Shown here: positions 4,660 to 64,000 of the stretch, in pieces
How positions within the stretch are numbered: the first letter of the stretch is position 1
Layout: every line of letters begins with the position of its first letter
Source of the DNA: a virus
Direction: 5' to 3' (one strand)
DNA length: 64,000 nucleotides
Virus record (IMG/VR): IMGVR_UViG_3300032291_001492
Span: 1 to 64,000 of that record
Translations under genes and position numbers: made by a program
Notes under the pieces: generated by a model
Seen by the model: only the letters and a program-made list of their open reading frames with translations
The model's database searches: none
What the model was told of the DNA's origin: nothing

Positions 4660-4680
4660 TAGGATACCACATTCAAATAC

Positions 4681-4704: not shown

Positions 4705-4746
4705 AAGTAACTTCCCATCCCGAGGGTAAAAAGTTTGATTCCGTTT

Positions 4747-7730: not shown

Positions 7731-7744
7731 TGCTCTCAGATTCC

Positions 7745-29884: not shown

Positions 29885-29897
29885 GACTAAATATATC

Positions 29898-30347: not shown

Positions 30348-30402
30348 CCCTAAAAATCCAGTGTTTTCAGGTATGATAAATACATGAAAGAGAACACGAT
30401 CC

Positions 30403-48800: not shown

Positions 48801-51800
48801 TTCACAAGCACTACATTATCAAATGTATTAAACGATGTTGCTTATGTTAGCACTCCTGGATATACTGGATTTGTCGCAGTTGGATTAGGACAACGTTTAA
48901 TTAGTGGAACAGCAGTAAATGTTGCATTAATATTCACTAGTACGGACGGTTATAACTGGAATCAAGTATCGTTTACTGACACTGTATTCTCATTAAATGC
49001 GATTGCATCAAACAGCGGTAGCATTGTTGCAGTTGGTAATAATGGTATTATCTATGTTAGTTTCAATACTGTTAACTGGTTTGCACAAACATCACCGGTA
49101 TCAGAAAACTTAAACAATATTATTTGGGATAGTTATAATAATCAATTTGTTGCAGTAGGTGATAACGGAACTATATTGACCGGTGATGCTAATGGCAACG
49201 CATGGACAGCACGAACATCTGGCACAACAGAAGATATACAAAGTGTTGTTTGGAATAATGATGATGGCATTTATATTGCTGTTGGATTGAACAATACAAT
49301 TTTACAAAGTGCTGATGCTATAACATGGATCTCAATTGCTACATTTGAAGTATTACCGTCAGTCTATGATATTCAAGGTGATGCGTTTACTGCAGGTTAT
49401 GGTCCGGAAGAAATGGTTCCTGGGGTAGTATCTGATACTATTACTATGACTGTTGCGACCCGTCCAGGAACTAACTGGGATGAAACTGTTTATCAACATG
49501 TTGGATATAATGTAGTATCTATTGAATTATCACCAATTAATGCATTACAAACAGAGTACAGTTTTGTAAATATAACCTCTACTCCTGCACAATTAAGTGT
49601 GTTTATCATTGACTATACAACAGAATTAAGCACAACAATTTATCAAGGTATTGATTATACAATAGATTGGATCAACAAAGTTGTGACTTTGACAAATCCA
49701 TTAAGTTTTGTTACAGAAGGTACATCAGATAGATTACGTATTGATGTATATGAAGTTGGTAATGGTGATCAGTTAGTAAAAGCAAATACAGAAACTGATC
49801 CTATTAGATTAAACACCACTACTGGATTTCAAGAAATATATGTAAATGCTAATTATAGTGCAGACATTTATCAAGGTTCAGGTATTATTAGACCTAATAC
49901 TAATCCACTAGAAGCAATTGCGATTGCAACGGATGAAACAACAGATGCAATTACTTGTGAAAGTGTTGAGAATTTTGTATTGAACGGCACAATTACTTTT
50001 AGCGGAGCAGTGTTTGGTGGAATAGTAGAAGACCAAGTTTATTATGTAAAATCTATTAGTTATATATCAAACAGAATTACTATTTCTGAAATATTTAATA
50101 CAGGTTCAGGCACTGCAGGAGCAACGTTCCCGTTGACTACTGCAACCGGGTTAATGACTGCAATTATTCAAGTTGGTACCGGTACAGTATGGACACCTCC
50201 TAGCGTGTTCCACAATGGTACTAAACTAGTATTGGGTCATACTGCAAATATAACTAGAACTAAATCAGGAACCAATACTATAACTACGAATACTACCGGT
50301 GACTTAGTTCCTAATCTATCTATTAAGTTTAGTTCAACTATGTTTGGTGGAGTAATCGTACCGTTACAAACATATTACATTAAAACAATTTATGATGGAA
50401 ATGAATTTACAATTTCAGAAACACCAGGTGGCGCAGAATTAGAATTGACCAACGCTACGGGTGGTGCAATTTTCATATCAGGTGATTATGCGATTGGTAT
50501 TGCAGATAATGGCATTTCTGCTGCGGTGTTGTTGGCAAATGAATATGATGCATTAACAGACTATATCACTTATACTTTCTTTGGACAAACATTACCTGTA
50601 CAATATGGTTACACACTTCCGGAAGTGCAACTATTTGAAGGTGATGGATCAACTGCATCATTTACATTAACTAATTATGTGGGTGATAGTAATGTTACAA
50701 GTGCAATTGTCGAAATTGATGGTATAAGACAAACTATTTCTGCCTATAATATAAGTGCAATCTCTAACACTATATTGTTCAACACACCTCCGGCAAACGG
50801 ATCAACTATAGCGGTTACTTCATATAATTTGACAGACCGTCAATATTTTAATACACAATACGGCATTACAGGTTCTTCTGGTGCAACTACAACTACTATT
50901 GTAGTTAGTGACACAACCCATAGCGTGGGCACGTTTGACCAAGATACTCCAACTATTGAAACATTTGACCAAGATACTCCTAGTGTAGTTTTATATGACC
51001 AAGAATTAGATTGGCTAACACTGGGTTCAGGCTCAACAAGCAGTTTATCAATTAATTTCCCAATTGTATTCCAAGCACCAACTCTAGGTGGGTTAATTGC
51101 TGGACAAATCTATTATGTAGTAGAAATATTAAATTCAACTGATTTTGTTGTATCTACTCAAGTAGACGGAACACCCACAACAGTTACTACTGATAGTGGT
51201 TCAATGAATGGTGTGGTTAATGGATTAACAGTTGCTAATATAATTAATATTAATAATGCTATTTCTAGTCCTTTGACAACTGTATTAGTTACTGGAACTA
51301 CAGGTGGTGCATCAGATTATGTAGTGTGTGGTTCTACAACTGGACTAATCGTAGATCAACCAATTATATTTAAAGCCGCAATAACTACTGCTGGCTCATT
51401 TGTTGTAGGTAAAACTTATAAAATTACTACACTAACAGGTACTTCACAAGTGCAGTGGAATACTACTGCTGGAACTTCAGGAGTAACATATGTAGTGGGT
51501 GATATATTCACAGCCGCAACAGTTGGTGCTGGTACTGGTCAGGCGTTATTAACTGATTTGGGTGGAATTAATACATTGGGTGAAGTATATTTTGTTCGTT
51601 CTGTTGCAAGTGGAACTGAATTTACAATTAAAGATCAGTATGGAACATTAGTTAATCTAACTACTGCTAGCGGTAGTTTAGTAGGATTTATGGGTGGTCT
51701 ATCTGCAATTAGTGTAACAACTGGCATAGATCATAATCTATCGGAAAATGAAATAGTTCGTATTGATGGCACATTAGGTTCAGTACAACTTAATAACAAT

Positions 51801-53195
51801 ACATACTATACTAAAATAATAACTGACACTGAATTCTTGTTATACGATCAGCCATATAATCCAGCATTGAATGCAGTTAATTACCCAGTTACATTCTCAT
51901 CAACTTATATATCAGGCGGTTACGTTTGGTTAGATGGATTATTTACTGTATCATGTACTAATACAATTCGTACATCTTCAAATGGAAATAGAATTACAGT
52001 AGATAGCACTGAGTCATTAATTCCTAATACTCCTGTATACTTTACATCAATAGGTGAAAGTCAAGGTACTAACATATTAGGAAATATCTTAGCAAAGACT
52101 GAATATTATGTTTTAGCGGTAAGACCTGAAGTAACTGCTGGTAATTTTATTGTAGGCAATGAATATGAGATTGTAGATTTAGGAAATACTAATTGGAATA
52201 CTTGTGCCGGAACAGTTAGCGTAACTTATGCAATCGGAGATACTTTTGTTGCAGCCGCAACTGATCCAGGAACTACTGGTATTGCAACTGGTCTACAAGA
52301 GTTTACTATTACTGAAAACAGATTCCCTGATGAAGCTGAAGTTGTATTAACTAATGCTACTGGTAGTGTTGATGTATCACAATTCCAGCAAGTTAATGTT
52401 GATAGATTGTGGGTAACAATAAATGGATACAGAATCCCTTCTTCATTATTGAGAATTAATGAATATAATAATTTAAGTATTTTATCAACTGTTACTACCG
52501 GTGATGAAGTTATCATTACAAGTATGATGCCAACAGCAACACCTAATGAAAATGTATATTTGTTAAATGTAACTACAACAAATCAACCTACAGTTTATAG
52601 AGCAAACACTCAAACTAGAACTTGGTTAACTCAACCATTGAGTTTCACGGATGAAGTTATTTACTTAAATGATGCTACTAGGGTTACTGATTCTATAGTA
52701 CAAGAAGTAATTGCGCCCGCACCAGTTGACGGTAAATATAATATTGGATTAGAAGCTAATAAAAATGTAATATGTCACGTGACCGTGTACAACAATACAA
52801 CTTCAACTTTAGTAGATCCTGCTAATTTTGCAATTATTATCGTTAATTTGGCTCCAATATTACAAATTTCAGATGAAGTAAACACTGGAGATTCGTTGAC
52901 AATAACTACACTTGAGGGAAGATTGTTGTTTGTTAATGGAGAACAGATTGCGTTTGCTGAATGTGACATTATAAATAATACAGTCAGTGGATTAACTAGA
53001 GGGGCAAATGGTACAGGGGAACAAACTTTTATTCCGTTATATTCTGAAGTATTTGGTATTATTCCTAATAACAGAATGACTAATGTAACCTACGGGGCTG
53101 TGTGGAATTCTTACATTTATAATTCCGTAGACGGGGATCCATTGCAAATTAGTCAGACTATAGGTGCAAATTTCTTAAAAGTGGATAGAAGTTAA
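33804..53195 (+). CDS. Giant (6463 aa) multidomain baseplate/receptor-binding virion protein (gp7-like position)
   Basis: Uninterrupted 19.4-kb ORF after gp6. N-terminal LNFLPEIFKT..N..FL.ATLDQL; EVKPYH motif; FG-GAP-like propeller, repeated VFxGxVFGG..G..YY modules and AVGxNGTI propeller repeats. CATAAGTA motif at 33770-33777. Confidence 0.85.
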   Translation: MATRIRTLNFLPEIFKTQTNAQFLAATLDQLVAQPNTKKIQGYVGSRFGYGVNATDYYVTEPTKVRTDYQLDPGVVFLKENDTTANDFISYPGIVDGIKLEGGLTQDNNRLFNSQFYSWDSFTNLDKIINFNEYYWLPDGPDRVIISTDVVFNSSNYLVQSLSNEYLISSESQSATSNPTLTLLRGGSYTFSVNQNTQFWIQGEPGVTGYSPTQPNVQTRDVFGVTNNGAENGVITFEVPAQNALNEYNFPPGPAVGVVSSLPFSQINGARVTEIGGIDGVTALDGLTVMFYNTGIADEIGYIQKFYDQTLFDEDGGVPYNEATDYPGTSEFYNNYEGGFYSPVNSNFYTITLLGDQSNPIIQLTPAGIIPTNQTITPTFGSEWVNRNFYRSVDGAIALVPYNSAILDTLYYQDGTNPNKVGIIRLANSNVSNSLDVVTEILGKPQYTAPNGVVFTNGLKILFQGNVTPEIYNNTEFYVEGVGTAIELIPVADLVSPGAFAEGSYIPFDTTPYDVGNFDSSLYLLIDPDYITIARNAINRNAWSRSNRWFHIDVINATADYNNNPELASVATIYNKASRPIIEFYPNLSLFDSGVIGKQPIDFIDFRTTDAFTLVAGQPTYYPDVAGYTGYSATIAPVLAAVTSKTATQTVGLVNQVILSPDTAGIYVNDTIVFGLVTAGGFVPGTTYKIVTPGNTDFTAIGASSNAVGTVFVATGAGSGTGTAGDVDSEFGGLIAGVTYYITEIFGNRITISTEKQGTSVILSSVAGSMSTSIYPYSTTITVATDEVFGLFEVNQYIADSTGILPAVTFINAITEVGSNTILTVSWYNQEVITGTSVASIVSADTTLSNYALFDGARVVFAADTNLSVRNKIYISRFSSIDGTGTPVITLSEAFDGQVLPDEQTSVYRGYNYKGKDFYFNVENWQQAQQKITINQAPKFDIYDENGISFGDSTVYIGTSFTGCSLFQYGLGTGISDPVLGFPLRYSTVNNIGDVSFDVTLDSQTFNYVQGTNPITQKVNTGYVYNYTSRTSFVRQLGWQTAVSPSVQYQIFEFNWSIDNPITNFVCDIAPVSSSSTNWPTVQVYINNTYLPDTDFTVSTTDNTTTVTISQIDAVNTVVQVLILSDQVSSTAYYQIPINLSNNPFNEDVTTVNIGDIRGQYQSMFFNNPNTLGPVFGRNNFRDLGNLVPWGNRIIQNSASLVLPGTFLRKQNHNLFNSILYNSRQYITFKNLLIDTVNNTDYNRMLSPAEMLDDAMDQITSTKTDSQPFFWSDMLPSKAPYISNTYSFANTLDVSIYPLSRIYDFDKANYYGVLVYLIRDSITSQLISGVDYTVSTSAPSLTVTLDLLSNDQIVINEYNQTYGSYVPNTPTKLGLYPSTIPAVVVDTAYFEPTYFIVGHDGSYNKLFGSYDSTTGQLEDFRDQVLLEYETRIYNNLKLSNVIPIQTYEVIPGFFRDLQYSYDEFLEVYSESFLDWVGQNRVDYKRQFYNPVNEFSYNYRNSGNKINREAIQQGYFRGLYLYYYDTTTPNVTPWQMIGYADQPTWWTERYGPAPYTSDNLILWNDLAEGIDWNNGNPVVITEYIRPELLQVLPVDSNGDLVSPLTSIVGNYNNNIFKRDWKVGDVGPTEFSYRRSSTWPFDLMRLYALAKPANFFNLAVDVDNYKYSAEFDQYLVNNRSHLQLGDIPIYGLGTPATSYINWIVDFEKQVGIDATTDITTLLKNLDVRLVYRVAGFSDKNLLKFYVEKSSANTTNSSLLIPDESYSVLLYDNQPFDRIVYSGVVIQITENGYQVYGNSQTNAYFKILLPKNSGYSETIEVENLSVRIADQYTDKVGIIPYGTEFYSVQEVAQFLSSYGKYLENQGMKFDQIENGIPVNWAQMIAEFLYWSQIGWEIGSITTINPSASTLVIDKDSSVVQPLTVRQRNFVLNQNLFPIQSIDLNVVRQDTAFTAQPLNQGDAISYGQFNISNFEHGIVFDNVTLFNDIIYNLITGLRQYRVSVRGAITADWNGTVDAAGFILNQDNIQEWNREIKYTKGEIVLYKNRYWTSLTIVQPKVLFDERDWKETNYNEIQKGLLPNSQTRSFESTLYYNTDSANLENDADLLSFSLIGYRPRDYLALADLTDITQVNVYKNMIKEKGTLNAASAFKGANLPQGGINYDIYENWAIKSGEFGGVLNNNFIEFNLNQASLTGNPSIVGLTNGIFTDGVQQEVPLYSIFNYGRPITSPNILPTISASEPSSLFPTAGYVNYNDVKMSSYYYSGLATATNASGTIVPINEFYVRDYVWLANYLSDWRVYTPVSLGSIINAKNNLNGTVTITFSQAHNLTRFELFGITNFDVAINNYYLVAAVVDPVRVIINLSLSPSTLNIVGQGIGLRMQSQRVATAPEIVDLPLLNNEFTKSKVWVDENNDGSWAVYRKSLNYQYDAEIIRASSQTFGSAVAYTTPMGYLIGDADVGAVYRYTFNAEANTYTLDQAITNSTSFGSYISYADDLFVISEPTSGSPKVYVYQLITTTLVDNLNSYQTISAPGGVTDWGSTTAISGDQNWLYISDTGNARVYVYRKSTLTNLYESVGYISVAGLTSADNFGFSIATDYYGDTVVIGAPDQDYNVNTDNYGYVYVFARTVQNFIAPSTSQSYIPQTFALSWSPVTVTQTATATDSTNDRITITSSAGFSVNDPVVFSGDILSSGAISQNTVYYVYDKPTATTFRIASTRNAAAPIELTTASGPPNMTVTVQTTPLFVNINGTLLEDDSYAVIGSTLYVYSGLTPTLNAGDILSVSGSNFVLTQTLDNGQTPRVGVQFGQSVDTNTYANEILVGAPFELSADNYEGAVHRFTNGGEKYGFIIGTANCNITTPRTILINGYQVILPIGNATNASNFINAANIPNVSATSIDGKLVIQLVDIAIGFAGSKLSLTVLNSATPAEMGINIYTATQTIACPHLTGPTQFGSVIKFNEFGSFIASAPTGTRYSATTFDFTDDELDNDTVFDNNATQWIDTFTNAGAVYMFDYISAYNESLNNPGKFVYAQSTNAENIDYGSQPYYGQALDFNDNRVTVGTPNFRPGYDNGQVVAYTSTSTEQDWAVYRSSAPIVDINGIANIQLFSGSSNTTLDNLDYFDPLQGKLLGAIRENIDVISNSDPAAYNSPNSIQRGLVWGADKVGQLWFDTSNTRFVNYHQNDIVYNSAYWGRIFSGSDVAVYSWVVSNVSPLDYIGPGIPYDIDTYTVNGVINAEGTIVPLYYFWVRNTNIVFEKTGKTLADSTLEAYISQPQNTGISYFAPLQPNIFALYNSGDYLNGNDTVLHIGYATGTNDDPIHNQYELIRADYADDFLSGVPGSGAGYQTRSSTGITEPISLYNRMLDSMCGVDNAGAVVPNPFLPRAVQTGVLARPRQSFFYDRYDALKNYLQYANEVLAQFPITEIRNPSFLNTTGATNPSTVDNPDWTGSVLPFYDTTNYWSYINWWAPGYDNNTKSALQVPIYADLSTLTVTPGTIVTVATNGNGNSETYIYNVDGSWTRIGLTNGTIEFSSALWDYSTYRLGFGDNFFDTTPYDNYPSEETRYIIRSLNEEIYNNELLIFRNKSLILLFEYIQSETSENQNYLPWLNKTSFLDVSHTIRELRPIEVFQSDNELFLEGYMNEVKPYHVVIKEFLFKYTGTDVYEGDITDFDLPAQYNSSVQQFITPELVYSNPNGDNQYLPNDPIWQTAPYIQWFNNHGVSIVGENDYPISVLTSYIATNSNSCYVDNVTGFPVTGTILIGTELIGYSSVNLLTNQLLGLARGLQNTVIQQHIPGETIFIDLPAVLVLNAGRLYDNPPKITAITDTTIYPEPTVPAQFEAVMGLGTVIGINVINPGQGYAVLPKIEIDPAVVVEVNSTQVNISNNTIELTIPTLQTGDLIVYQPGTNSTVIGGLTSGQKYYVNLLEVSPAPIIALYASYIDADRDHNRVVLTSTGSGVQKLNLGAVASCITSSVPVRENSINLRFDRTSYTSQVTEWASGDFYGSFYAGTYSNSDQVSSSSIALQSTQPPIDTILASAQGATFEILDATNDQTLTWSSRTRETVQTYGPATLYPNAIRINPSTGGSPVAGELGSTVGFYIGMPVKFVGATVGNLVNETTYYVKSLVDLPNLVTSNPEATGFTISATVDEDGVPGSTFVLSTATVTAAGLPMFVGEVTNTAVLTINYSGIRNATVTTSGTNTITVLLTATGQNGTNGLYTGIPVYFTGNVFGGISENEIYYVTTVTGPQTFTMSTQTNPTTLTITETDSVTDAITCDSTLTLSLNEPIVFTGDVFGNIVEGTQYYIRELFSGNITFSISETINGPVFALASDTGSCTMISQKDTVTLQDDIGSMTMNVSLPVSPGQVNGQLFTLYPTSQQYINQTGVVTNLIERDINATLSTVNRLCLSTFTGGILNLYTNFEFDVASNIGGLTTSGGPYIVTAVGTTTVNVSSTSGSGNWLTVPLDTNPYTTDVLYSGMPIIFSGVSLGGVLLNTVYYVDTIDASPPVGSGRFTISETSDLSSGIFVVTNDNGDMVGTGDPFIQVADTLSNATGPVMLTQTVGTTPTFDVSYILGGYRVTIQNPGSVFAIDNTITILGTNLGGTTPENDLVLTVSSINTTGGIVSTICNGTPAGTTEQYYFKVVSENQVEVYENAALSVPVSGQNFPYVGITSTTATIATASNDRFTVTSSADFSINDPVVFTGTVFGGVTLGQTYYIKSKPTGTTVTITETVDGTVFNITTNATGSMTMAKSGDYALLPEPFFFSPSIVKYNNRVYQCIVSNNDPEFILGKWELLDPGNRKLNGLDRVIAYYRPTVNMPGVDLTQLVTGITYPNSTYLGNAFAPDDEFTVDVNLTDQPFYPTGIDLSTIIWNGISYLAGSNAETYSSINLSETGSSWVINKISNQPIGITDLLFAGGSYVLTSNNPATPILISDNGFTWISNGTFTPFDSTPYDITTFDISSVNVPSLLLNGVVYYNGIYIAVGNNIISSTDLYSWVERYAFTSTTLSNVLNDVAYVSTPGYTGFVAVGLGQRLISGTAVNVALIFTSTDGYNWNQVSFTDTVFSLNAIASNSGSIVAVGNNGIIYVSFNTVNWFAQTSPVSENLNNIIWDSYNNQFVAVGDNGTILTGDANGNAWTARTSGTTEDIQSVVWNNDDGIYIAVGLNNTILQSADAITWISIATFEVLPSVYDIQGDAFTAGYGPEEMVPGVVSDTITMTVATRPGTNWDETVYQHVGYNVVSIELSPINALQTEYSFVNITSTPAQLSVFIIDYTTELSTTIYQGIDYTIDWINKVVTLTNPLSFVTEGTSDRLRIDVYEVGNGDQLVKANTETDPIRLNTTTGFQEIYVNANYSADIYQGSGIIRPNTNPLEAIAIATDETTDAITCESVENFVLNGTITFSGAVFGGIVEDQVYYVKSISYISNRITISEIFNTGSGTAGATFPLTTATGLMTAIIQVGTGTVWTPPSVFHNGTKLVLGHTANITRTKSGTNTITTNTTGDLVPNLSIKFSSTMFGGVIVPLQTYYIKTIYDGNEFTISETPGGAELELTNATGGAIFISGDYAIGIADNGISAAVLLANEYDALTDYITYTFFGQTLPVQYGYTLPEVQLFEGDGSTASFTLTNYVGDSNVTSAIVEIDGIRQTISAYNISAISNTILFNTPPANGSTIAVTSYNLTDRQYFNTQYGITGSSGATTTTIVVSDTTHSVGTFDQDTPTIETFDQDTPSVVLYDQELDWLTLGSGSTSSLSINFPIVFQAPTLGGLIAGQIYYVVEILNSTDFVVSTQVDGTPTTVTTDSGSMNGVVNGLTVANIININNAISSPLTTVLVTGTTGGASDYVVCGSTTGLIVDQPIIFKAAITTAGSFVVGKTYKITTLTGTSQVQWNTTAGTSGVTYVVGDIFTAATVGAGTGQALLTDLGGINTLGEVYFVRSVASGTEFTIKDQYGTLVNLTTASGSLVGFMGGLSAISVTTGIDHNLSENEIVRIDGTLGSVQLNNNTYYTKIITDTEFLLYDQPYNPALNAVNYPVTFSSTYISGGYVWLDGLFTVSCTNTIRTSSNGNRITVDSTESLIPNTPVYFTSIGESQGTNILGNILAKTEYYVLAVRPEVTAGNFIVGNEYEIVDLGNTNWNTCAGTVSVTYAIGDTFVAAATDPGTTGIATGLQEFTITENRFPDEAEVVLTNATGSVDVSQFQQVNVDRLWVTINGYRIPSSLLRINEYNNLSILSTVTTGDEVIITSMMPTATPNENVYLLNVTTTNQPTVYRANTQTRTWLTQPLSFTDEVIYLNDATRVTDSIVQEVIAPAPVDGKYNIGLEANKNVICHVTVYNNTTSTLVDPANFAIIIVNLAPILQISDEVNTGDSLTITTLEGRLLFVNGEQIAFAECDIINNTVSGLTRGANGTGEQTFIPLYSEVFGIIPNNRMTNVTYGAVWNSYIYNSVDGDPLQISQTIGANFLKVDRS

Positions 53196-53983: not shown

Positions 53984-54014
53984 GATAAATAACAGATATC
54001 GGAGAAATTTTAAA

Positions 54015-55259: not shown

Positions 55260-55268
55260 GGAATAAAA

Positions 55269-56225
55269 ATGGCATACGCACAATTTGGTACAATTCAAGC
55301 CGCAGATTTTAACACATTAGTCGGTGGTGACCCGGTAACTTCATCAGGTACATTAAATGCTGTTTGGGCAACAGGTGGAACTAATGCTGGGTATGGTCAA
55401 ACAGCAGTGGCTAACGTAGCAGTTGGTGCCGTAGTTGCAGCAAATCAGCAATGGGCAAATTTGGTAACATATACTGCTAACTCGGCAACACATCAAGGCA
55501 CTTCAATAACTGCGGTGTCCGCACCGGTTACAGGCGGAACTATTACATATCTGTCTGCAATCCCTACAAACCTAACTTCAATTTATAATAGTAGATTAAA
55601 CGCAGCCACACAAGGTGCAACTACTTCTAATTCAGCGGTATATGGTAGTACTTGGACAGCTGGTATTACTTTTACACATACTGTTACCTTTGCAAATGGA
55701 AATGCCGCAAGATATTTCTTTAACTCAGGTGGTCAATTAAAAGTAACATGTTCACATGCAAACTCAACTGCTGGTATTAATTTATTATTAAATAATTTGG
55801 CAAGTAATGTGGGAACGGTTGTTATGAGTTCGCCTACATCAGGTGCAATCACAGTATCAGGTACATCTTATAATGGAATTACTAAGATTGGTGGGGGAGG
55901 TAATGCACCTACTATTAGTACTAACACAGGGTACTTTGCGTTGACTACATCCAATGCAACAATATTTACACAAACAGCAAGTACAGGTCCTTCTGGATAT
56001 CTGGGAACATTTATTCGTATGATTGCAAAATCAAATGGAACTCAAGGTGCAAACGGAGATGCAGGTAGTGTTATAACCATATACACTATTTGGGATGAAG
56101 TTCCGGACGGTCTTACTGCTGGTACAGGTTCAACCACAACTGTTACTGCACAAGCACCAGAAACAACTAATATAGCTAATACCTGGGGTGCAATAACTAT
56201 ATCAGGTACAGTTTCTGGTTCATGA
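55269..56225 (+). CDS. Virion structural protein (fibre-associated)
   Basis: Thr/Gly/Ala-rich beta protein with I.A.DFN, GYGQ and ARYFFN.GG motifs; AAGGA RBS. Confidence 0.65.
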   Translation: MAYAQFGTIQAADFNTLVGGDPVTSSGTLNAVWATGGTNAGYGQTAVANVAVGAVVAANQQWANLVTYTANSATHQGTSITAVSAPVTGGTITYLSAIPTNLTSIYNSRLNAATQGATTSNSAVYGSTWTAGITFTHTVTFANGNAARYFFNSGGQLKVTCSHANSTAGINLLLNNLASNVGTVVMSSPTSGAITVSGTSYNGITKIGGGGNAPTISTNTGYFALTTSNATIFTQTASTGPSGYLGTFIRMIAKSNGTQGANGDAGSVITIYTIWDEVPDGLTAGTGSTTTVTAQAPETTNIANTWGAITISGTVSGS

Positions 56226-56250: not shown

Positions 56251-56257
56251 CTAAATA
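56251..56257 (+). promoter_or_regulatory. Late promoter variant (CTAAATA) heading the glycosyltransferase/radical SAM operon
   Basis: Followed by AGGAG RBS and the ATG at 56273. Confidence 0.55.
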
Positions 56258-56272
56258 CTCTTAGGAGTACAC

Positions 56273-56578
56273 ATGGATACAAAGACATTGATTTCCGAAG
56301 CTAAAGCCCGCTTCAATCACAACTCAGCCAAAGCATACTTAAAGGACAAGTACGATAGTAAGTTTATCGTAGCAGACCAATCAGGGCTTTGGAGAGCCGA
56401 CTTAGAAACTATTAATTTTTTAACTGCCTACACAGATGAATGGGTTATTTTAATTGACACCTTTAAAAATCCAGTCAGAGTAAACAGAGTTACTCTACTT
56501 GAAAAACTTTCTGAAACATACAAATCTGTTATGGATGATTGGTATACAGAATGGACTGAATTAGAGAAAAAAAGATGA
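56273..56578 (+). CDS. Hypothetical protein (101 aa), first gene of the operon
   Basis: Strong RBS; ATGA overlap with the next gene. Confidence 0.8.
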   Translation: MDTKTLISEAKARFNHNSAKAYLKDKYDSKFIVADQSGLWRADLETINFLTAYTDEWVILIDTFKNPVRVNRVTLLEKLSETYKSVMDDWYTEWTELEKKR

Positions 56579-57378
56579 GTAGAGGGGCATTATTATTTGC
56601 ATTTAATAGTCCTAAATTTAACTACTATGACATGGCAGTAGCAACTGCTAAACGCATTAATCACTTTTTGGACATTCCGGTTACTATAGTAACGGATAAC
56701 GAATCATTGCCTGAAAATCAAAGTTACACGTTTGACAATGTTATATTAGCAGAGGCTGACAAAAACAATAAGCGTGACTGGGGTATGTGGATAAATAAAG
56801 GTCGATATCGTGCTTTTAATTTAAGTCCATATGATGAAACTTTGTTGTTAGATACTGATTATATGGTAAATTCAAATAAGTTATTAAAAACTTTTGATTT
56901 ACCTACTGATTTTTGTTGCCATGATACAACTAGTTTCCTAATGTATCCTGATGCCGCACAAGAAGTACTCAGTTCATATAGTTTTAAAACACTATGGGCA
57001 ACTGCAATTACTTTTAAAAAAACAAAAAGATCAAAATTAATATTTGATTGTTTAGAAATGGTTCAGAAAAATTTTGAACATTATGCAAACCTTCATGGTT
57101 TTATTTCTGTAACTTTTCGCAATGACTATGGATTGACGTTAGCTACTAGAATAGTTAACGGACATACTACTCCTATAGAAGACATAATTCCCTGGAATCT
57201 ATTACACGCAGGTAAAAACACCACCATATATAAAAATAGTGATGATGAATTTAATACTGACTATACTATAATGTTTGATAATTGGAATAAAGGTAAAATT
57301 CGCAAAGAATATATAATCATTAAAGATACTGACTTTCATGTTATGAACAAAGAAAACTTTTTGGAGTTAATCAAATGA
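56575..57378 (+). CDS. GT-A-fold glycosyltransferase-like protein
   Basis: GALLFA.N....Y..MA...A, VTIVTD, SPYDETLLLDTDY (DxD), FRND. Confidence 0.7.
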   Translation: MSRGALLFAFNSPKFNYYDMAVATAKRINHFLDIPVTIVTDNESLPENQSYTFDNVILAEADKNNKRDWGMWINKGRYRAFNLSPYDETLLLDTDYMVNSNKLLKTFDLPTDFCCHDTTSFLMYPDAAQEVLSSYSFKTLWATAITFKKTKRSKLIFDCLEMVQKNFEHYANLHGFISVTFRNDYGLTLATRIVNGHTTPIEDIIPWNLLHAGKNTTIYKNSDDEFNTDYTIMFDNWNKGKIRKEYIIIKDTDFHVMNKENFLELIK

Positions 57379-58139
57379 CCAAAGGTTTTGTAATAATGGC
57401 ACAAAATACAACAAATGTGAAATATACTAACTGTGCCAAAGCCTTAGAAAAAAGTATAAAGCGTGTTATGCCAAACGCTAATGTTACTATTGTTACTACT
57501 GAAATGCTGCCTCACGGAGATTTGGCTCCCGCGAGTGATTGGAAATTAATAAACGATTGGCAAGTCTATGAAGCAAGTCCATATGATGAGACTATTAAAT
57601 TAGAAGCAGATATGTACATTCCTAGAAGTATTGAACATTGGTGGGATATATTATCTCAAAAAGATGTTGTGGTGTGTAATACTATTAGGAATTTTAAACA
57701 AGAAATTTCAGATGTACGAGTATATCGTAGATTTATTGATGATAATAATTTACCAGATGTATATAACGCAATTACATATTTTAAGAAATCGGATACAGCT
57801 AAACAATTTTTTTACATTGTGAGAAATGTATTTGATAATTGGAAAGAATATAAAGCTATACTAAAATGCAATCCGGAAGAACCGGCGACAACTGATTGGG
57901 CGTATGCAATTGCATGTCATATTATTGGTATTGAAAAAACAATGTTACCTAACTTTACCGAAATGAGTATGGTACATATGAAACAATTTATTAACAATAC
58001 CCCTACAGAAAATTGGACAGATACATTTGTTTATGAATGTTTGCCCAATCAAATTAGAATTCAAACCGTACCGCAATTTTATCCTTTTCACTATCATATA
58101 AAGAACTTTAGTGATAAAATATTAGAAAGTATGAAATGA
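57375..58139 (+). CDS. Second GT-A-fold glycosyltransferase-like paralogue (ExD variant)
   Basis: GFVIMAQN....Y..CA..L..SI, SPYDETIKLEADM, TDWAYAIA, HMK, PFHYH.K. Confidence 0.65.
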   Translation: MTKGFVIMAQNTTNVKYTNCAKALEKSIKRVMPNANVTIVTTEMLPHGDLAPASDWKLINDWQVYEASPYDETIKLEADMYIPRSIEHWWDILSQKDVVVCNTIRNFKQEISDVRVYRRFIDDNNLPDVYNAITYFKKSDTAKQFFYIVRNVFDNWKEYKAILKCNPEEPATTDWAYAIACHIIGIEKTMLPNFTEMSMVHMKQFINNTPTENWTDTFVYECLPNQIRIQTVPQFYPFHYHIKNFSDKILESMK

Positions 58140-58492
58140 ATACCGAAGACACCTCATCAGATTTTGTAATAATATGGGAACCCCCTAAACTAGAAACACC
58201 TGAGTTTAGGTTATATTATGATAGCACCGGCGCAGTAATATGTTACACCGGTGACAAATCTATGCAGGGTAATTATATTGTAATTGATGCACATACATTT
58301 GCTGCCGCAAGACCTGATGTAAGAGTTATCGATGGTAGGATATCTAGTGTTGCACCTAATGCAGTAGTTTATAAATTAATGCCAGACAATATCGAAGGTA
58401 AAGACTGTCATATTGAAGATATAAGTGTATTAGTTGATGAATTATATACTGGCAAAAAGCAAAAATGGAAATTAAACATATATGAACTCTGA
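58136..58492 (+). CDS. Hypothetical protein (118 aa)
   Basis: EFRLYYD..G.VICY motif; overlaps both neighbours. Confidence 0.75.
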   Translation: MNTEDTSSDFVIIWEPPKLETPEFRLYYDSTGAVICYTGDKSMQGNYIVIDAHTFAAARPDVRVIDGRISSVAPNAVVYKLMPDNIEGKDCHIEDISVLVDELYTGKKQKWKLNIYEL

Positions 58493-59435
58493 TGATATTA
58501 TTGATGTTGCGGATTTAGATTGTGTATATCTAAGCTATGATGAACCACAAAAAGAAGAATTTTGGATTAAGATAAAAAATATGGTGCCTTGGGCAAAACG
58601 TGTTGATGGTGTAAAAGGAAGTGATGCCGCACACAAAGCCGCAGGTGAAGCAAGCGACACGGAACGTTTCATTCTAATTGATGGCGACAATATGCCAAAC
58701 GAAGATTTCTTCAATATTCAATTAGATTTTACAAACAAAGATCCTTCATTTAAGAAAGCACAGTTTCGTTGGAAAGCAGTAAACAGTATTAATGGTTTGC
58801 GTTATGGTAATGGTGGCATGAGTAGTTGGACAAAAGAATATGTTGCTAATATGAAAACGCATGAACATCAAACAGAAGGTGATGTATCTCGCATTGCTGA
58901 TTTCTGTATGGGAGGTAATGATAATTTATATTGGGCTATGTACAATTGCTACAGCACAACATACCCTAACTACACACCCTTTCAAGCATGGCGTGCAGGA
59001 TTCCGTGAAGGTGTTAAAATGAGTTTAGACAGAGGTGCAAGACCTTCTGTTGAAGCGTTTAAAGAAACAGTAGCAAGTAGAAATTTAAATAATCTAACTA
59101 TCTGGCACAACGTAGGTATGGATGTAGAAAACGGTGAGTGGGCGATAATGGGAGCCCGTATGGGTACACATATGACTATGCTCACTGATTGGGACCATGC
59201 TAATGTTCAATGGTTTGATAATTACATTGAGATGTGGAATAAGATCAAAGACGAAGATCCATTAGAACTATCAGAAATATATGGCATCGAACTAAAAACT
59301 AAATTGGATTTGCCAATGTGTGCATTAGATAGTGACCAAAGTAAATTTTTTAAGCGTCACTATAAAGCAGATTTTCATAACTTAGATCCATTAGTAACTG
59401 AGATGGATGTAATTCGTAGAATTGAAGGATGGTAA
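58482..59435 (+). CDS. Glycosyltransferase-like protein (GT-A, DGD)
   Basis: YLSYDEP, KRVDGVKGSDAAHKAA, RFILIDGDN, NGL.YGNGG, QAWRAGFREGVKM. Confidence 0.6.
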   Translation: MNSDDIIDVADLDCVYLSYDEPQKEEFWIKIKNMVPWAKRVDGVKGSDAAHKAAGEASDTERFILIDGDNMPNEDFFNIQLDFTNKDPSFKKAQFRWKAVNSINGLRYGNGGMSSWTKEYVANMKTHEHQTEGDVSRIADFCMGGNDNLYWAMYNCYSTTYPNYTPFQAWRAGFREGVKMSLDRGARPSVEAFKETVASRNLNNLTIWHNVGMDVENGEWAIMGARMGTHMTMLTDWDHANVQWFDNYIEMWNKIKDEDPLELSEIYGIELKTKLDLPMCALDSDQSKFFKRHYKADFHNLDPLVTEMDVIRRIEGW

Positions 59436-60829
59436 TGAGTAGCGAACAGCAACGTATAAAAGACATTAAGATTAAAATTGAGAATGAAGTAGGTCCAACC
59501 TTCTGTCTTGCTAAATGGCACCATGTTACTATGTACCTACAGTCAGGAGAAACACATAGTTGTTATCATCCACAACCTCATAAAATTCCAATTAGCGAGT
59601 TAATAGACAATCCTTCAGCGTTACATAATACACAACAAAAAAAAGAAGAACGTAAACTTATGTTAGATGGTGGTAAACCATCCGGTTGCCAGTATTGCTG
59701 GAACATTGAGAGTATGGGTCCTGACTATATTAGTGATAGACATATACGCAACGCTAGCATATTCACAGAAGAACGATATGAACAGACTGTCAAAGGTCCT
59801 TGGAATCAAAATATAAATCCAGAATACTTAGAAATTAACTTTGGTAACGAATGTAATTTCAAGTGCGGCTATTGTCATCCTAAGTATTCTACTAGTTTCT
59901 ATAATGAAATTAAAAAGAATGGCCCTGTCACTACAGTAAAAAATCATAGATGTGACATTGACTGGATGACACTTTATCAACGTGAAGAAGAAAATCCATA
60001 CGTTGATGCATTTTGGAAATGGTGGCCCGAATTACGTAAAACATTAAACATTATGCGAGTAACCGGCGGCGAACCTACGATGCATACTAGCACATGGAAA
60101 TTGTTGAAAGAGATTGAGCAAGATCCTATGCCTTGGTTAGAACTAAATATCAATAGTAATTTAGGAACTAAAACTGCACTAGTAGAAAAATTAGCTGATA
60201 GTGTTAAAAAATTAGTAGACAATAAAAAAATACGTGCATTCAAATTGTTTACTAGTCTGGATACATGGGGTGAACGTGCAGAGTACATTAGAACCGGATT
60301 AGATTTAGAATTGTGGGAAAAGAATTTTCACACATATTTGACCCGTACAGATAGTCCAATCACATTTATGATAACCTTTAATATATTTTCAGTCACTACA
60401 TTTAAGTCATTACTTGAAAAAATGTTAGAATGGCGTGAACAATATGGTTGGTATGAAGATATAAAAAGCCATCGTGTTAGATTTGACACCCCGTATTTGC
60501 GAGACCCAATTCAATACGATATGAATATATTGCCTAAAGAAGAATTCATGCCTTATATGAATGATACACTGGCATTTATGAAAGCTAATGTAGATGATGA
60601 AGCCAGTAATAAATTTACAACAGTTGAATATGAAAAATTTAAACGTGTTGTTGATTATATGGCTGAGACAGTATATCCAGAAAGTAAATTGATTGAAGGT
60701 CGAAGAGATTTTTATAATTGGTTTAATGAACTAGATGAACGCCGCGAAAATGATATGTTATCTGTGTTTCCTGAAATGTTAGGATTTTATAGATTATGTC
60801 AAGAGGTTAACCAAACACATCCAAAATGA
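59435..60829 (+). CDS. Radical SAM enzyme with N-terminal Twitch-like domain (#1)
   Basis: FCLAKW..HSCYH...CQYCW N-terminal cluster; CNFKCGYC; TGGEP; NSN; TSLD...AEYIR.G. Start MSSE via TAATG coupling. Confidence 0.88.
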   Translation: MSSEQQRIKDIKIKIENEVGPTFCLAKWHHVTMYLQSGETHSCYHPQPHKIPISELIDNPSALHNTQQKKEERKLMLDGGKPSGCQYCWNIESMGPDYISDRHIRNASIFTEERYEQTVKGPWNQNINPEYLEINFGNECNFKCGYCHPKYSTSFYNEIKKNGPVTTVKNHRCDIDWMTLYQREEENPYVDAFWKWWPELRKTLNIMRVTGGEPTMHTSTWKLLKEIEQDPMPWLELNINSNLGTKTALVEKLADSVKKLVDNKKIRAFKLFTSLDTWGERAEYIRTGLDLELWEKNFHTYLTRTDSPITFMITFNIFSVTTFKSLLEKMLEWREQYGWYEDIKSHRVRFDTPYLRDPIQYDMNILPKEEFMPYMNDTLAFMKANVDDEASNKFTTVEYEKFKRVVDYMAETVYPESKLIEGRRDFYNWFNELDERRENDMLSVFPEMLGFYRLCQEVNQTHPK

Positions 60830-62103
60830 CAGAAAAAATATCAAACAATAAAGAATTCGATCTTACGCAAAGTAAAACTTTTTGCATGTCTCCTTGGATA
60901 CACTTGTACTCAAGTCCTAGTGGTGAGGCAGCACCGTGTTGTATTGCTGAATCATGTGCCCAGGGCGGAGTGGGTAACACTAGAACACAATCATTAATGG
61001 AAGTAGTTAATTCACCTAAAATGAATCAACTACGAAATGATATGCTATCTGGGGTAAAGAATAAAGAATGCGATAAATGTTACATGCATGAAGATCAAAA
61101 CTTATTAAGTTCACGTAATATGCTTAATACTAGATTTGGTCCTAATTTCTACGATGAAGTTATTGAAAATACAAACATTGACGGATCATTGGCTAAATTT
61201 AAAATGAGATATTTTGATATTCGTTTTAGTAATATATGTAATTTTAAATGTAGAACATGCGGTTCCGGCTTTAGTACACAATGGGAACAAGAAGATTTAA
61301 AAAATAATGTTTACCATGCAAAAATAATTCCAAAAAATGATAATCCAGATTTTTTAAAAGAAATATTTGATCAAATAGATTTTATGGAAACCGCTTATTT
61401 TGCGGGCGGTGAACCCTTAATCACAGAAGAACATTATATTTTGTTAGAAGAAATGATACGAAGAGGTCGTACTGATATCCAACTAAGGTATAATACAAAC
61501 TTAAGCAATTTTAAATTTAAAAACAAAGATTTATTATCTTTATGGAAGCATTTTAGTAAAGGGGTCGATATATATGCAAGCATTGACCATTACGGAGAAC
61601 GTGCAGAGTATATAAGACACGGAACAGATTGGGGAGTAGTAGAAAGTAATTTTTTACAAGCTAAAAAAACTCCCTATTTAAGAGTGAATATGAACACTGT
61701 ATTAAGTGTTTTTAATTTTTTAACAATACATGAATTTTATCAATATCTAATAGATAAAAAATTATATACTCCTAATAGTAGTGTTTATACACTATATAAC
61801 ATGTCAACTCCTGATTATTTGGCTTGTCATATTTTGCCCTTAGATTATAAAGATGTTGGAAAAAATAGTATTGAAAAAACTATGCGATTATTAAAAGATA
61901 AGAGATTTAAAAAACACCATATAACGCAACTATCAGATACTATTCCTTGGATTTATTCAAAAGATTCATGGGATGAAAACAAATATCAATTTAGAAAAGA
62001 AGTAAAAAGATTAGACTCAATTAGAGGGGAAGATTTTTCAAAAACTTTTCCTGAATTAGCTCCGTTGTTACTTCCAGATCGTAATAAATTTTTCCCTATA
62101 TGA
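60826..62103 (+). CDS. Radical SAM enzyme with N-terminal Twitch domain (#2)
   Basis: FCMSPW..PCC...CDKC; CNFKCRTC; FAGGEP; YNTN; SID...AEYIRHG; LD.IRGE.F..TFPEL. Confidence 0.9.
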   Translation: MTEKISNNKEFDLTQSKTFCMSPWIHLYSSPSGEAAPCCIAESCAQGGVGNTRTQSLMEVVNSPKMNQLRNDMLSGVKNKECDKCYMHEDQNLLSSRNMLNTRFGPNFYDEVIENTNIDGSLAKFKMRYFDIRFSNICNFKCRTCGSGFSTQWEQEDLKNNVYHAKIIPKNDNPDFLKEIFDQIDFMETAYFAGGEPLITEEHYILLEEMIRRGRTDIQLRYNTNLSNFKFKNKDLLSLWKHFSKGVDIYASIDHYGERAEYIRHGTDWGVVESNFLQAKKTPYLRVNMNTVLSVFNFLTIHEFYQYLIDKKLYTPNSSVYTLYNMSTPDYLACHILPLDYKDVGKNSIEKTMRLLKDKRFKKHHITQLSDTIPWIYSKDSWDENKYQFRKEVKRLDSIRGEDFSKTFPELAPLLLPDRNKFFPI

Positions 62104-63326
62104 ACAAAAATTATCTATTAAATGATAGCAAAACGTTTTGTATGTTTCCGTGGGTACATCTAAATGTAACTCCCAAAGGTGATATATATCCTTGCTGTAG
62201 TAATGACTATACGCAACCCTTCGGAAACACAAAAGAAATAACATTAAAACAGGCATTTAACAGTGAACCAATGAAGCAATTGCGATTGGACATGTTAAAT
62301 GACAAACCTAATAAAATATGCAATTTCTGTTACAAGCACGAAGAAGCAGGTCCGCATAGTTTTAGAAATTACAGTAAAGAACATTTTGGAAAACACTTTG
62401 ATGAAGTTGTGCCCACTACGTTAGAAGATGGAACTGTTCCTGAATTTAAGATGCATTACTTTGACATTCGTTTTAGTAACATATGTAATTTCAAATGTAG
62501 AACATGCGGTAGTGAGTTTAGCAGTCAGTGGGGAGCAGAGATGCGAGCTAATCATGATCCTAAGCATCCCATTATTATTCATGCTGATGAAAAAGGTAAT
62601 TTATTGCGTGAAGTACTAGAACAAGTAGAACACATTGATTTGGCATATTTTGCAGGTGGAGAGCCCACACTTACCGAAGAGCATTATATAATGCTTGAAG
62701 AAATGATACGTAAAGGCCGCACTGACATTACATTACGCTATAACACAAACGCTAGTAATATCAAGTTTAAAGATTATGATTTACTAGACATGTGGAAGCA
62801 CTTTAAGAAAATTGAATTGAGTTGCAGTGTTGACCATTATGGTGAACGTGCAGAATGGCTACGTCATGGTACTGATTGGGGATTAGTTGAAAGTAATCTG
62901 TTAAAGTTCCGTGAATTAGATTATGTTAGTTTTCAAATGAACACTGTATTCAGTATCTTTAACTATAGTACAATTGGTGAATTTTATCAGTACTTAAAAG
63001 ACAAGAATATTATTAGAGCAGAAGATTGGTATCATAGTTTGTACTTGGCAGTACATCCTAGTTATTATAGTGCTAAGAGTCTACCCAAAGAATTAAAAAT
63101 TGAAGCCGCAAAGAAAGCACTTGATTGGGCAGATAAGAATACAGGTGATCATACCTCATTATCACGCTTAGTTACTGATGCAGTAAACTTTGCTACAGAC
63201 GATGACATATGGACTGAAAATAAAGAAACTTTCATGTTGCATACAGGTTCAGGAGATAGAATTCGTAATGAAAGTTTCTGGAAAACATTCCCTGAATTAA
63301 ATAAATTGATGGATTTAACGGAGTAA
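62100..63326 (+). CDS. Radical SAM enzyme with N-terminal Twitch domain (#3), close paralogue of #2
   Basis: FCMFPW..PCC...CNFC; YFDIRFSNICNFKCRTCGS identical to #2; FAGGEP. Confidence 0.9.
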   Translation: MNKNYLLNDSKTFCMFPWVHLNVTPKGDIYPCCSNDYTQPFGNTKEITLKQAFNSEPMKQLRLDMLNDKPNKICNFCYKHEEAGPHSFRNYSKEHFGKHFDEVVPTTLEDGTVPEFKMHYFDIRFSNICNFKCRTCGSEFSSQWGAEMRANHDPKHPIIIHADEKGNLLREVLEQVEHIDLAYFAGGEPTLTEEHYIMLEEMIRKGRTDITLRYNTNASNIKFKDYDLLDMWKHFKKIELSCSVDHYGERAEWLRHGTDWGLVESNLLKFRELDYVSFQMNTVFSIFNYSTIGEFYQYLKDKNIIRAEDWYHSLYLAVHPSYYSAKSLPKELKIEAAKKALDWADKNTGDHTSLSRLVTDAVNFATDDDIWTENKETFMLHTGSGDRIRNESFWKTFPELNKLMDLTE

Positions 63327-63328
63327 AA

Positions 63329-64000
63329 ATGCAAGACCCAATAGTTGTAGAGAATTTAGTAAAACATGGTAAACACTTTTGTGTATTACCCTGGGTCCAC
63401 TTTCATTCATGGCCTGATGGCAGAGTTATGCCTTGCTGTGTTGCTGATAGTAATATGCCAGTGGCTGAGATTAAAAAAGATGAATCTATCATACAAATGG
63501 TTAATAGTGAAGATTTCAAAAAAATGCGTACTGCTATGTTAGCTGATGAACCAGTTGAAGCATGTAAGCGTTGCTATGACCTAGAGTTAATGGGTACTTG
63601 GACAATGCGTTTAAGTCATAATAAACGCCGAGGATTAGAGTATGTTAATCATATAAGTGAAATTACAGAAGATGATGGTAGTTTGACGGAATTCAAAATG
63701 AAATACATGGATTTACGTTTTAGTAATATGTGTAACATGAAGTGCCGTAGTTGTGGTCCTGGCTGTAGTAGTTTATGGGCACAAGAGTTTATTGATGAAC
63801 GTGGCGTGGATGTATACGAAGAATATTTTCACACAAAAAAAATTGTAATTAACAAAGCAGAAGAAATGGGCTTTATGAATAAATTAAAGCCATATCTAAA
63901 AGATGTTACTGAGGTTTATTTTGCTGGTGGTGAAATTATTATCACCCCGGAACATTATGAATGTTTAGATTATTGGATTGAGAATGGCTTAAACGAACAA
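63329..64000 (+). CDS. Radical SAM enzyme with N-terminal Twitch domain (#4), 3'-truncated at window edge
   Basis: Manual translation: MQDPIVVENLVKHGKHFCVLPWVH...PCC...CKRC...DLRFSNMCNMKCRSC...YFAGGEI; GGAG before the ATG at 63329. Confidence 0.88.
   Translation, partial: MQDPIVVENLVKHGKHFCVLPWVHFHSWPDGRVMPCCVADSNMPVAEIKKDESIIQMVNSEDFKKMRTAMLADEPVEACKRCYDLELMGTWTMRLSHNKRRGLEYVNHISEITEDDGSLTEFKMKYMDLRFSNMCNMKCRSCGPGCSSLWAQEFIDERGVDVYEEYFHTKKIVINKAEEMGFMNKLKPYLKDVTEVYFAGGEIIITPEHYECLDYWIENGLNEQ

Follow-up and report, generated by a model that had tools for sequence, protein, structure and literature searches.

A late-type phage operon combining glycosyltransferase-like genes with N-terminal-Twitch radical SAM genes, a candidate pathway for decorating the virion with a glycan

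We analysed the first 64 kb (the window) of a 95,465-bp viral contig in IMG/VR (record IMGVR_UViG_3300032291_001492), which is estimated to represent ∼ 27% of its genome; all IMG/VR records of this phage lineage that we used are genome fragments of 13–35%. The window closes within an operon in which glycosyltransferase-like genes are followed by genes for radical S-adenosylmethionine (SAM) enzymes. Nine open reading frames (ORFs), named A–E and R1–R4 and starting at 56273, are joined in a chain by overlaps of 4, 4, 4, 11, 7, 4 and 4 nucleotides (nt) and one gap of 2 nt; the coordinates match those of a preliminary description made from the sequence. On the contig the operon runs past the window, from 56273 to about 85704, roughly 30 kb (Table 1). 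It follows the fibre-region genes (53363–56225, all on the plus strand) in the same orientation and, as the preliminary description also held, is headed by a motif found in front of the structural genes. This motif is TAAATA, the core of the T4 late-promoter consensus TATAAATA. TAAATA occurs ≤ 45 nt upstream of 17 of the 62 contig genes (about 1.5 expected), among them the portal, baseplate and 54015 fibre genes, the head of the operon and the internal operon gene at 76568. Between 53000 and 60000 no sigma-70-like or terminator-like signals rose above chance, and no plus-strand terminator-like site was found between the fibre genes and the operon. By analogy with T4, the motif shared with the virion genes supports reading the operon as a late-type transcription unit. 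The Metallophos and GT4 genes at 85955–87868 were considered as further members and rejected because they have upstream motifs of their own.

R1–R4 belong to one protein family. The preliminary description had counted at least four Twitch radical SAM enzymes, and the four ORFs from 59429 indeed score 313–382 bits against the NCBIfam model NF033640 (N_Twi_rSAM, N-terminal-Twitch radical SAM), for which the curated cut-off is 170 bits, with matches covering model positions 1–398. Each protein has an N-terminal SPASM-type cysteine domain (Pfam SPASM matches at residues ∼ 14–88 in R2–R4) and, ∼ 110 residues later, the CxxxCxxC motif, which starts at residues 142, 138, 129 and 135 of R1–R4 respectively. 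In R1 the motif reads C142-x3-C-x2-C and the N-terminal cysteines are residues 26, 45, 87 and 90; in R2 the latter are residues 20, 38/39, 82 and 85, the SPASM match spans 20–86 and the radical SAM core 133–272. BtrN and MoaA, which are known to act on a sugar-like cyclitol or a nucleotide, resemble R1–R4 in having the CxxxCxxC core and one auxiliary four-cysteine cluster domain. However, their Twitch domain is C-terminal whereas that of R1–R4 is N-terminal, and R2 gave no significant sequence match to solved structures. The closest weak matches of the radical SAM core are MoaA and viperin, and other weak NCBIfam-level matches of R1–R4 are sactipeptide, DynA and YydG maturases. No characterized or solved NF033640 member was found in the PDB (searched with R2) or in the literature on the family and on radical SAM–Twitch–glycan combinations; the chemistry that the preliminary description gave R1–R4 by likeness to BtrN, anSME and AlbA is therefore tentative. 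In a maximum-likelihood tree R1, R2, R3 and R4 each form an old orthologous group, and a recent tandem expansion of the four genes was rejected on this ground. R2 and R3 are sister groups (49% identity by blastp), and together they are sister to one bacterial subfamily (91/76). R1 is phage-specific; its clade contains ORF349 of the Ralstonia phage RsoM2USA and the copies at the related loci L018 and L025 (support 100/100). When genome contigs were scanned with R3, the only match was a 1.7-kb contig in a Flavobacteriaceae metagenome-assembled genome, which is probably phage DNA.

The five genes in front of R1 received no function from Pfam, NCBIfam or PHROGs searches, and the case that some of them are glycosyltransferases is made by predicted folds. 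The model of B has a predicted local distance difference test (pLDDT) score of 59, with a confident N-terminal half. Its top Foldseek matches are glycogenin and GT6 (E 3e-5). In VIA it aligns with glycogenin over 158 residues (Z 11.1, root-mean-square deviation 3.6), and the top 25 rows are all glycogenin (Z 11.1 to 9.6), followed by IspD (9.6) and GT6 (9.2). Glycogenin is a protein-glycosylating GT8 enzyme. An Atlas feature-based lead for B also pointed to PF03407/PF01501 (score 0.96); a PDB single-sequence search with B returned nothing useful. C can be aligned with B from end to end, and both have the motifs SPYDET..L(D/E)xD, FKK and FH; D95 is invariant across the B and C families. E is modelled with higher confidence (pLDDT 93) as an N-terminal GT-A domain followed by a helical domain. 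Its residues 6–165 match B4GALNT1 (Z 9.4), STIV A197 (8.5) and SpsA, BcsA and SunS (8.0) in VIA, as well as the viral glycosyltransferases PBCV-1 A64R (7.8) and R655 (7.0). Nucleotidyltransferases of the same fold score slightly lower (Z 7–8), so the fold alone does not settle the transferase class of E; a glycosyltransferase is the best reading of the model. Among 66 members of the E family both aspartates of its motif, D67 and D69, show at least 90% conservation. An E-type domain with DxD adjoins R1 in every phage examined; all R1-adjacent copies keep the motif, which is lost only in the C-terminal copy of the 1510-residue protein described below. The family is large: it forms 1154 representative clusters at 50% identity, and scoring turned up over 8000 close homologues of E, some of them on contigs of 332–361 kb. 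Some members are fused to GT-B domains (GT28/EryCIII-type). Three genes, B, its paralogue C and E, thus have predicted GT-A folds, as many as the glycosyltransferase-like genes of the preliminary description. Of the suggested family types, GT8-like for B and C and GT2-like for E stand at the level of fold but not as Pfam membership: B and C did not match PF01501 or PF03407, and E did not match PF00535, for which one family member reached 20.3 bits against a cut-off of 23.3.

Downstream of R4 the operon encodes three further radical SAM proteins, which brings the total to seven (R1–R4, a short one and two B12-binding ones) beside at least eight transferase-like proteins. Both B12-radical SAM proteins have a B12-binding domain followed by a radical SAM core, and a weak match to TokK was seen. 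Together with a short-chain dehydrogenase/reductase (SDR), a UDP-sugar dehydrogenase, a carbamoyltransferase and a methyltransferase, they make a multi-step glycan pathway the natural reading. G, J and K share invariant G-C-S and N..G..N signatures and further SGNH-like blocks; in hhalign they match the bacterial GDSL family weakly (P 4e-4, probability 34%) and in blocks I–II only. The last gene encodes a 1510-residue protein made of 13 copies of a ∼ 67-residue motif, [FY]D[FYW]xWxP..YIYxFG..GGPxY, and a C-terminal E-type domain without DxD. The repeat resembles the hairpin behind the DxD strand of E-type domains. Relatives differ in the number of copies (1000–1700 residues), and neither a PDB single-sequence search nor an Atlas search with the repeat region gave a useful match. 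In 27 of 28 operon proteins no 19-residue window exceeds a Kyte–Doolittle value of 1.6, the methyltransferase having one borderline window. Pfam families for the parts of a Wzx/Wzy- or ABC-type export system (membrane initiating transferase, flippase or transporter, polymerase) were not found among the operon proteins. The lack of membrane segments argues against a self-contained surface-polysaccharide export system and makes assembly on a soluble acceptor likely.

Table 1. Features of the operon, of the genes upstream of it and of the corresponding region of RsoM2USA. Window and contig share one numbering; RsoM2USA genes are listed in their order in that genome.
Feature	Position	Strand	Remark
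TAAATA, core of T4-type late promoter	56252..56257	+	15 nt before first operon ATG
A, 101-residue protein	56273..56578	+	no family match; conserved in close relatives
B, glycogenin-like (GT8-like) GT-A glycosyltransferase candidate, D93-T-D95	56575..57378	+	predicted fold
C, paralogue of B, E-A-D replacing DxD	57375..58139	+	alignment with B
D, 118-residue protein	58136..58492	+	no family match; conserved in close relatives
E, GT-A (GT2-like) domain, D67-x-D69, and helical C-terminal domain	58482..59435	+	predicted fold
R1, phage-specific orthologous group	59429..60829	+	NF033640, 312.7 bits
R2	60826..62103	+	NF033640, 381.8 bits
R3	62100..63326	+	NF033640, 369.5 bits
R4	63329..64000	+	NF033640, 357.9 bits (whole gene); cut by window end, ends at 64600 on contig
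Short radical SAM protein	contig 64585		
F	contig 65556		
SDR epimerase/dehydratase	contig 66872		
G	contig 67846		SGNH-like, motif level
B12-radical SAM protein	contig 68717		PF02310 and PF04055
H and I	contig 70641, 71585		paralogues of F and of the N-terminal part of the 74646 methyltransferase
J	contig 72670		SGNH-like, motif level
UDP-glucose/GDP-mannose dehydrogenase family (UDP-sugar dehydrogenase)	contig 73453		
628-residue methyltransferase	contig 74646		
B12-radical SAM protein b	contig 76568		PF02310 and PF04055; TAAATA upstream
K	contig 78817		SGNH-like, motif level
NodU/CmcH-type carbamoyltransferase	contig 79664		
1510-residue repeat protein	contig 81172-85704 (L009:7173-11705)		
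Baseplate hub and wedge genes	26393-33774		upstream of 6463-residue ORF
6463-residue virion (baseplate/fibre-complex) protein, candidate acceptor	33804..53195	+	single ORF after baseplate hub/wedge genes
Fibre-region gene 1	53363-53983	+	first of three genes directly upstream of operon, same strand
Fibre-region gene 2	54015-55259	+	Peptidase_G2 intramolecular-chaperone domain and virion-structural PHROG
Fibre-region gene 3	55269-56225	+	last gene before operon
RsoM2USA ORF361			giant protein partly similar to 6463-residue ORF
RsoM2USA ORF358			SDR
RsoM2USA ORF355			fibre gene, N-terminus 42% identical to 54015 product
RsoM2USA ORF354			small ORF at position of A
RsoM2USA ORF353			B orthologue
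RsoM2USA ORF352			C orthologue, 32% identity
RsoM2USA ORF351			ORF between C- and E-like genes
RsoM2USA ORF350			E orthologue, 41% identity
RsoM2USA ORF349			R1 orthologue, 35% identity, 283 bits
RsoM2USA ORF348			second E-type domain, DxD kept

The link between the fibre genes and the operon, which the preliminary description had proposed to follow across related phages, recurs in close relatives and in RsoM2USA. Relatives were found at 19 IMG/VR loci. Close ones have the same order of fibre genes, A–E, R1–R4, short radical SAM gene, F, SDR, G and B12-radical SAM gene. Distant ones (50–65% identity) retain a core of E-type domain, R1, R2/R3, R4, short radical SAM gene, B12-radical SAM gene b and K, without A–D; their E-type domain is of the active, DxD-containing kind and is fused to a different repeat, ..HVWxLD....WAxK. 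In one distant group a P4H-type 2-oxoglutarate (2OG)-Fe(II) oxygenase gene (L025:4210-4779) stands between the E-type gene and R1. The 121-kb relative G002 (L061-L063; contig positions 78662, 90352 and 110201) has seven NF033640 genes above the cut-off and a second mini-module, SDR – short radical SAM gene – ORF – NF033640, right after its thymidylate synthase gene (364 bits, canonical-ThyA-like). RsoM2USA (MG752970.1) is a cultured Ralstonia jumbo phage with a complete genome of 343.8 kb. Its ORFs 347–354 are annotated as hypothetical, and mass spectrometry of its virions detected ORF361, ORF359 and ORF356 (PMC8504454); the module therefore stands directly after genes for virion-detected proteins. 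The similarity of ORF361 (2541 residues) to the 6463-residue ORF takes the form of patches of 20–36% identity, and the small ORF at the position of A has no detectable similarity to A. A phage that infects another host phylum thus keeps the order fibre – B – C – E – R1, and this conservation speaks for a function that is intrinsic to the phage and linked to the fibre. Judged from sequence comparison, this B – C – E – R1 module, common to both phages, is the oldest part of the operon.

R2–R4 and B12-radical SAM b have homologues in bacteria. Among 401 evenly sampled Bacteroidota genomes NF033640 exceeded its cut-off in four. In a single Bacteroidota order (that of genome G154, probably Chitinophagales from the source names of the homologues) 69 of 301 genomes matched at E ≤ 1e-40, 44 of them above the cut-off and mostly with at least five clustered copies; about a quarter of the sampled genomes of this order thus carry such clusters. 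The clusters (L041-L054) are large and chromosomal, with 4–7 NF033640 paralogues and about three GDSL-family genes each. Eight of them, with 115 ORFs, encode 45 radical SAM proteins (40 with a SPASM domain), about 14–22 GDSL-family proteins, four B12-binding proteins, GT32-like and Caps_synth proteins, and one carbamoyltransferase, one sulfotransferase and one SDR; one genome adds a methyltransferase–GT2 fusion and a GT-C protein. The L042 cluster holds five PhyH dioxygenases, a WelO5-like enzyme, a methyltransferase and B12-radical SAM proteins, and also a fibre-like protein that is secreted (type IX secretion system) and has an endosialidase-chaperone domain. Searched by tblastn with the phage proteins, the clusters matched the radical SAM proteins (R2–R4 and B12-radical SAM b at 25–35% identity), the B12-radical SAM protein, the carbamoyltransferase and the SDR; no counterparts of B, C, E or F/H/I were found in the clusters sampled. 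By sequence, then, R2–R4, B12-radical SAM b and the SGNH-like proteins resemble clusters common in one bacterial order. Like the phage operon, the bacterial clusters hold several paralogues of this radical SAM family, and with them B12-radical SAM, GDSL-family, glycosyltransferase, carbamoyl-, sulfo- and methyltransferase genes. Unlike the operon, they encode GT-C and UbiA membrane proteins, and homologues of B, C, E and F/H/I were not detected in them.

A late, cytoplasmic pathway that builds and tailors a glycan is well supported by these data, and that the operon serves a glycan pathway of some kind we regard as probable. In the mechanism that we propose, the SDR, the dehydrogenase and radical enzymes would make or alter nucleotide sugars, and the GT-A enzymes would move these onto a soluble acceptor. 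The sugars would then be decorated with methyl groups by the B12-radical SAM proteins or SAM methyltransferases, with carbamoyl groups, possibly with acyl groups by G, J and K, and by radical C–H chemistry of R1–R4. Each radical SAM paralogue would probably perform a different C–H functionalization (oxidation, epimerization, deoxygenation, C-methylation or C–C coupling). As acceptor we favour a co-produced virion protein, first of all the fibre complex, that is, the fibre and giant baseplate–fibre proteins encoded just upstream; the probability of this we put at about 0.45. The outcome would be a particle with a glycan coat on the organelle that contacts the host. A more specific proposal is doubtful: NF033640 would be a new class of radical glycan- (or glycoprotein-) tailoring enzymes, and jumbo T4-like phages with an ancient, fibre-linked B/C/E/R1 module and bacteria-related paralogues would use it to put a radical SAM-modified glycan on their fibres.

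Several observations weigh against decoration of virion proteins. The acceptor, be it a virion protein, DNA or the host envelope, is one that we infer, and in the fibre proteins neither a glycosylation motif nor an acceptor could be recognized. From the preliminary description, which had placed an unusual glycan or modification on virion proteins (or the infected-cell surface) and set DNA aside, the late-type, translationally coupled GT-A/radical SAM operon behind the fibre genes and its sugar-tailoring genes therefore stand, but the acceptor is less certain than it had been made to appear, and DNA is a less probable candidate. Lateness itself comes from the promoter motif and analogy with T4. 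The model of B is of moderate confidence, and PDB profile searches with the F/H/I family and with G/J/K gave no match, which leaves both families without a solid assignment; for F/H/I a fucosyltransferase-like 'TEK' motif was a tentative lead. In Vibrio phage K566 three distant radical SAM relatives (161548-165950, L066), on very long tree branches, stand not beside fibre genes but among small hypothetical, non-structural ones. The GT-C and UbiA proteins of the bacterial clusters suggest that the ancestral pathway may be lipid-linked. Finally, GT-A enzymes with the structural neighbours of E act on DNA in other phages (bioRxiv 10.1101/2023.12.21.572611).

The alternative that survives best, which we nevertheless think unlikely, is remodelling of the host envelope. 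Here the soluble phage enzymes would use the lipid-linked glycan pathway of a host with a homologous radical SAM/GDSL cluster, and would change or increase a glycan or glycolipid of the cell surface late in infection. One benefit might be that receptors on cells and debris are hidden and progeny are not wasted on them; another, that other phages are kept out. Soluble glycosyltransferases can use lipid-linked intermediates at the inner membrane face, and the clusters that harbour the homologues of R2–R4 and B12-radical SAM b are frequent in one order and carry genes of the kind usual for envelope glycans (GT-C, UbiA, GT32-like and Caps_synth). The Metallophos and GT4 genes next to the operon look like lipid-remodelling genes as well. 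Yet an initiating transferase, a flippase, a polymerase and indeed any membrane protein are missing from the operon, and late timing would leave little time for export before lysis. B – C – E – R1 also adjoins the fibre genes of RsoM2USA, whose host is a proteobacterium, and no clustered counterpart of B, C or E was found in the sampled Bacteroidota clusters.

DNA hypermodification is a less probable alternative. The GT-A enzymes would glycosylate hydroxymethylated pyrimidines, other enzymes would tailor the sugars, and the genome would be shielded from host nucleases. The phage GT-A enzymes that glycosylate 5-hydroxymethylcytosine have, like E, TarP, JGT and PBCV-1 A64R as structural neighbours, and their pathways can include epimerases and second glycosyltransferases (bioRxiv 10.1101/2023.12.21.572611). 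Known phage pathways of this kind are those of T4 alpha/beta-GT and the 5mYOX- or ThyS-linked GT-A/GT-B clusters. Radical SAM enzymes, too, are reported to occur in thymidine hypermodification pathways (PMC8989533). Thymidylate-synthase-family genes lie 8–11 kb past the operon in two relatives, but they score like canonical ThyA (354–364 bits), and there is no such gene (PF00303) on the contig itself. RsoM2USA has a second, divergent family member (MG752970.1 7739-8398, minus strand; 85 bits against 242 for the canonical copy), but the module is > 100 kb away from either copy, whereas genes for DNA modification tend to lie together. A search for Tet/JBP dioxygenases gave no match in five contigs of the lineage, which are fragments and in which the positive control gave no match anywhere. 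Known hypermodification clusters stand beside a cytosine methyltransferase, a TET-like dioxygenase or thymidylate-synthase homologues and replication genes (bioRxiv 10.1101/2023.12.21.572611), whereas the present operon has fibre neighbours, a place among structural genes and a late-type promoter. Moreover, a glycan made by at least eight transferase-like proteins and many tailoring steps would be far bigger than the adducts known on DNA, which consist of one to a few sugars. As an observation on RsoM2USA itself, its gene at 7739-8398 may encode a pyrimidine hydroxymethylase; if so, the DNA of RsoM2USA would be modified.

We consider it improbable that the Twitch and B12-radical SAM proteins act on residues of the fibre or another virion protein (epimerization, C-methylation, cross-links) in the manner of ribosomally synthesized and post-translationally modified peptides (RiPPs), with glycosylation as a side activity. 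Most characterized SPASM/Twitch enzymes do act on peptides, and the weak matches to sactipeptide, DynA and YydG maturases fit such a role, as do the 2OG-Fe(II) oxygenase whose gene separates the E-type gene from R1 in one group of phages and the L042 cluster, whose fibre-like secreted protein accompanies PhyH, WelO5-like, methyltransferase and B12-radical SAM enzymes, a set that we take to recall proteusin tailoring. However, the closest weak matches of the radical SAM core, MoaA and viperin, act on nucleotides, and the constant partners of the family are GT-A, SDR and GDSL proteins; in the annotated ORFs we noticed no precursor peptide, RiPP recognition element (RRE) domain, leader peptidase or exporter, though no dedicated search for them was made. 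Very improbable is a diffusible, aminoglycoside- or nucleoside-like small molecule made late, for example against competitors: the Twitch enzymes, B12-radical SAM methyltransferases, carbamoyltransferase, SDR, dehydrogenase and glycosyltransferases presumably resemble the content of aminoglycoside or tunicamycin-type clusters, but the annotated proteins include no aminotransferase, cyclitol synthase, exporter or resistance gene, and the operon lies amid virion genes and has a late-type promoter.

Decoration of virion proteins has parallels in other viruses. Phage glycosyltransferases reportedly glycosylate mycobacteriophage virions (Freeman et al. 2023, as cited in PMC12619734). The systems of the Che8/Corndog/Myrna type resemble the present operon in that soluble, phage-encoded glycosyltransferases, expected to work on virion proteins in the cytoplasm, lie beside structural genes. 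They consist, however, of one to few glycosyltransferases and no radical SAM enzyme, against at least eight transferase-like proteins, seven radical SAM proteins and several other tailoring enzymes here, and virion glycosylation has been demonstrated in mycobacteriophages while we infer it for this operon. PBCV-1 A64R (PDB 2p6w) is a precedent for virus-encoded virion glycosylation. Like the present phage, PBCV-1 and mimivirus (R655, PDB 9crz) encode GT-A and nucleotide-sugar enzymes, with which they attach unusual methylated glycans to their capsid or fibril proteins independently of the membrane machinery of the host. These are eukaryotic giant viruses that lack radical SAM tailoring, and their likeness to E is at fold level only (8–10% identity). 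To our knowledge none of the known virus-encoded glycosylation systems (mycobacteriophages, chloroviruses, mimiviruses, DNA glucosylation) uses radical SAM chemistry, and in agreement with the preliminary description we found no characterized phage pathway of this architecture. The present phage has seven radical SAM genes, four of them from a family without a characterized member, in one late-type operon with glycosyltransferases. If the proposal of radical SAM-modified fibre glycans is true, it would be a virion modification of a kind undescribed for any virus, possibly imitating a host glycan made by the homologous bacterial clusters; a glycan on the fibre would matter for how the phage recognizes its host, for the stability of the particle and for its recognition by defences. 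Since NF033640 is widespread in a Bacteroidota order, its chemistry bears on bacterial glycobiology too, and since the core module occurs in the cultured RsoM2USA, target and chemistry are directly testable.

The source of the contig is a T4-like jumbo phage, as judged by its Gp23-type major capsid protein, Gp20-type portal, baseplate genes, the 6463-residue ORF and the kinship of its capsid protein (∼ 65% identity) to those of the closest isolates, the jumbo myophages Vibrio phage 2.275.O, Pseudomonas PA5oct and relatives; it also encodes a prohead protease and gp46-like proteins. At DNA level (blastn) the window had no match in the phage collection, although the lineage is very abundant in metagenomes. 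The 'moraphage' paper (PMC12619734) describes Bacteroidota jumbo phages with core glycosyltransferases; no tie between these and the present lineage could be made. In some close relatives the 55269 fibre-region gene is duplicated in tandem (L010:3439-5369, L014:3473-5399; 65–77% identity), which fits a variable receptor-binding part, as expected. A further radical SAM gene, for a 363-residue protein, lies at 3627-4718 on the minus strand, 29 nt downstream of the Gp23-type capsid gene and on the same strand as it. The protein has no N-terminal Twitch match, and its only relatives in the phage collection are the radical SAM genes of Campylobacter CP220-type phages (26% identity).

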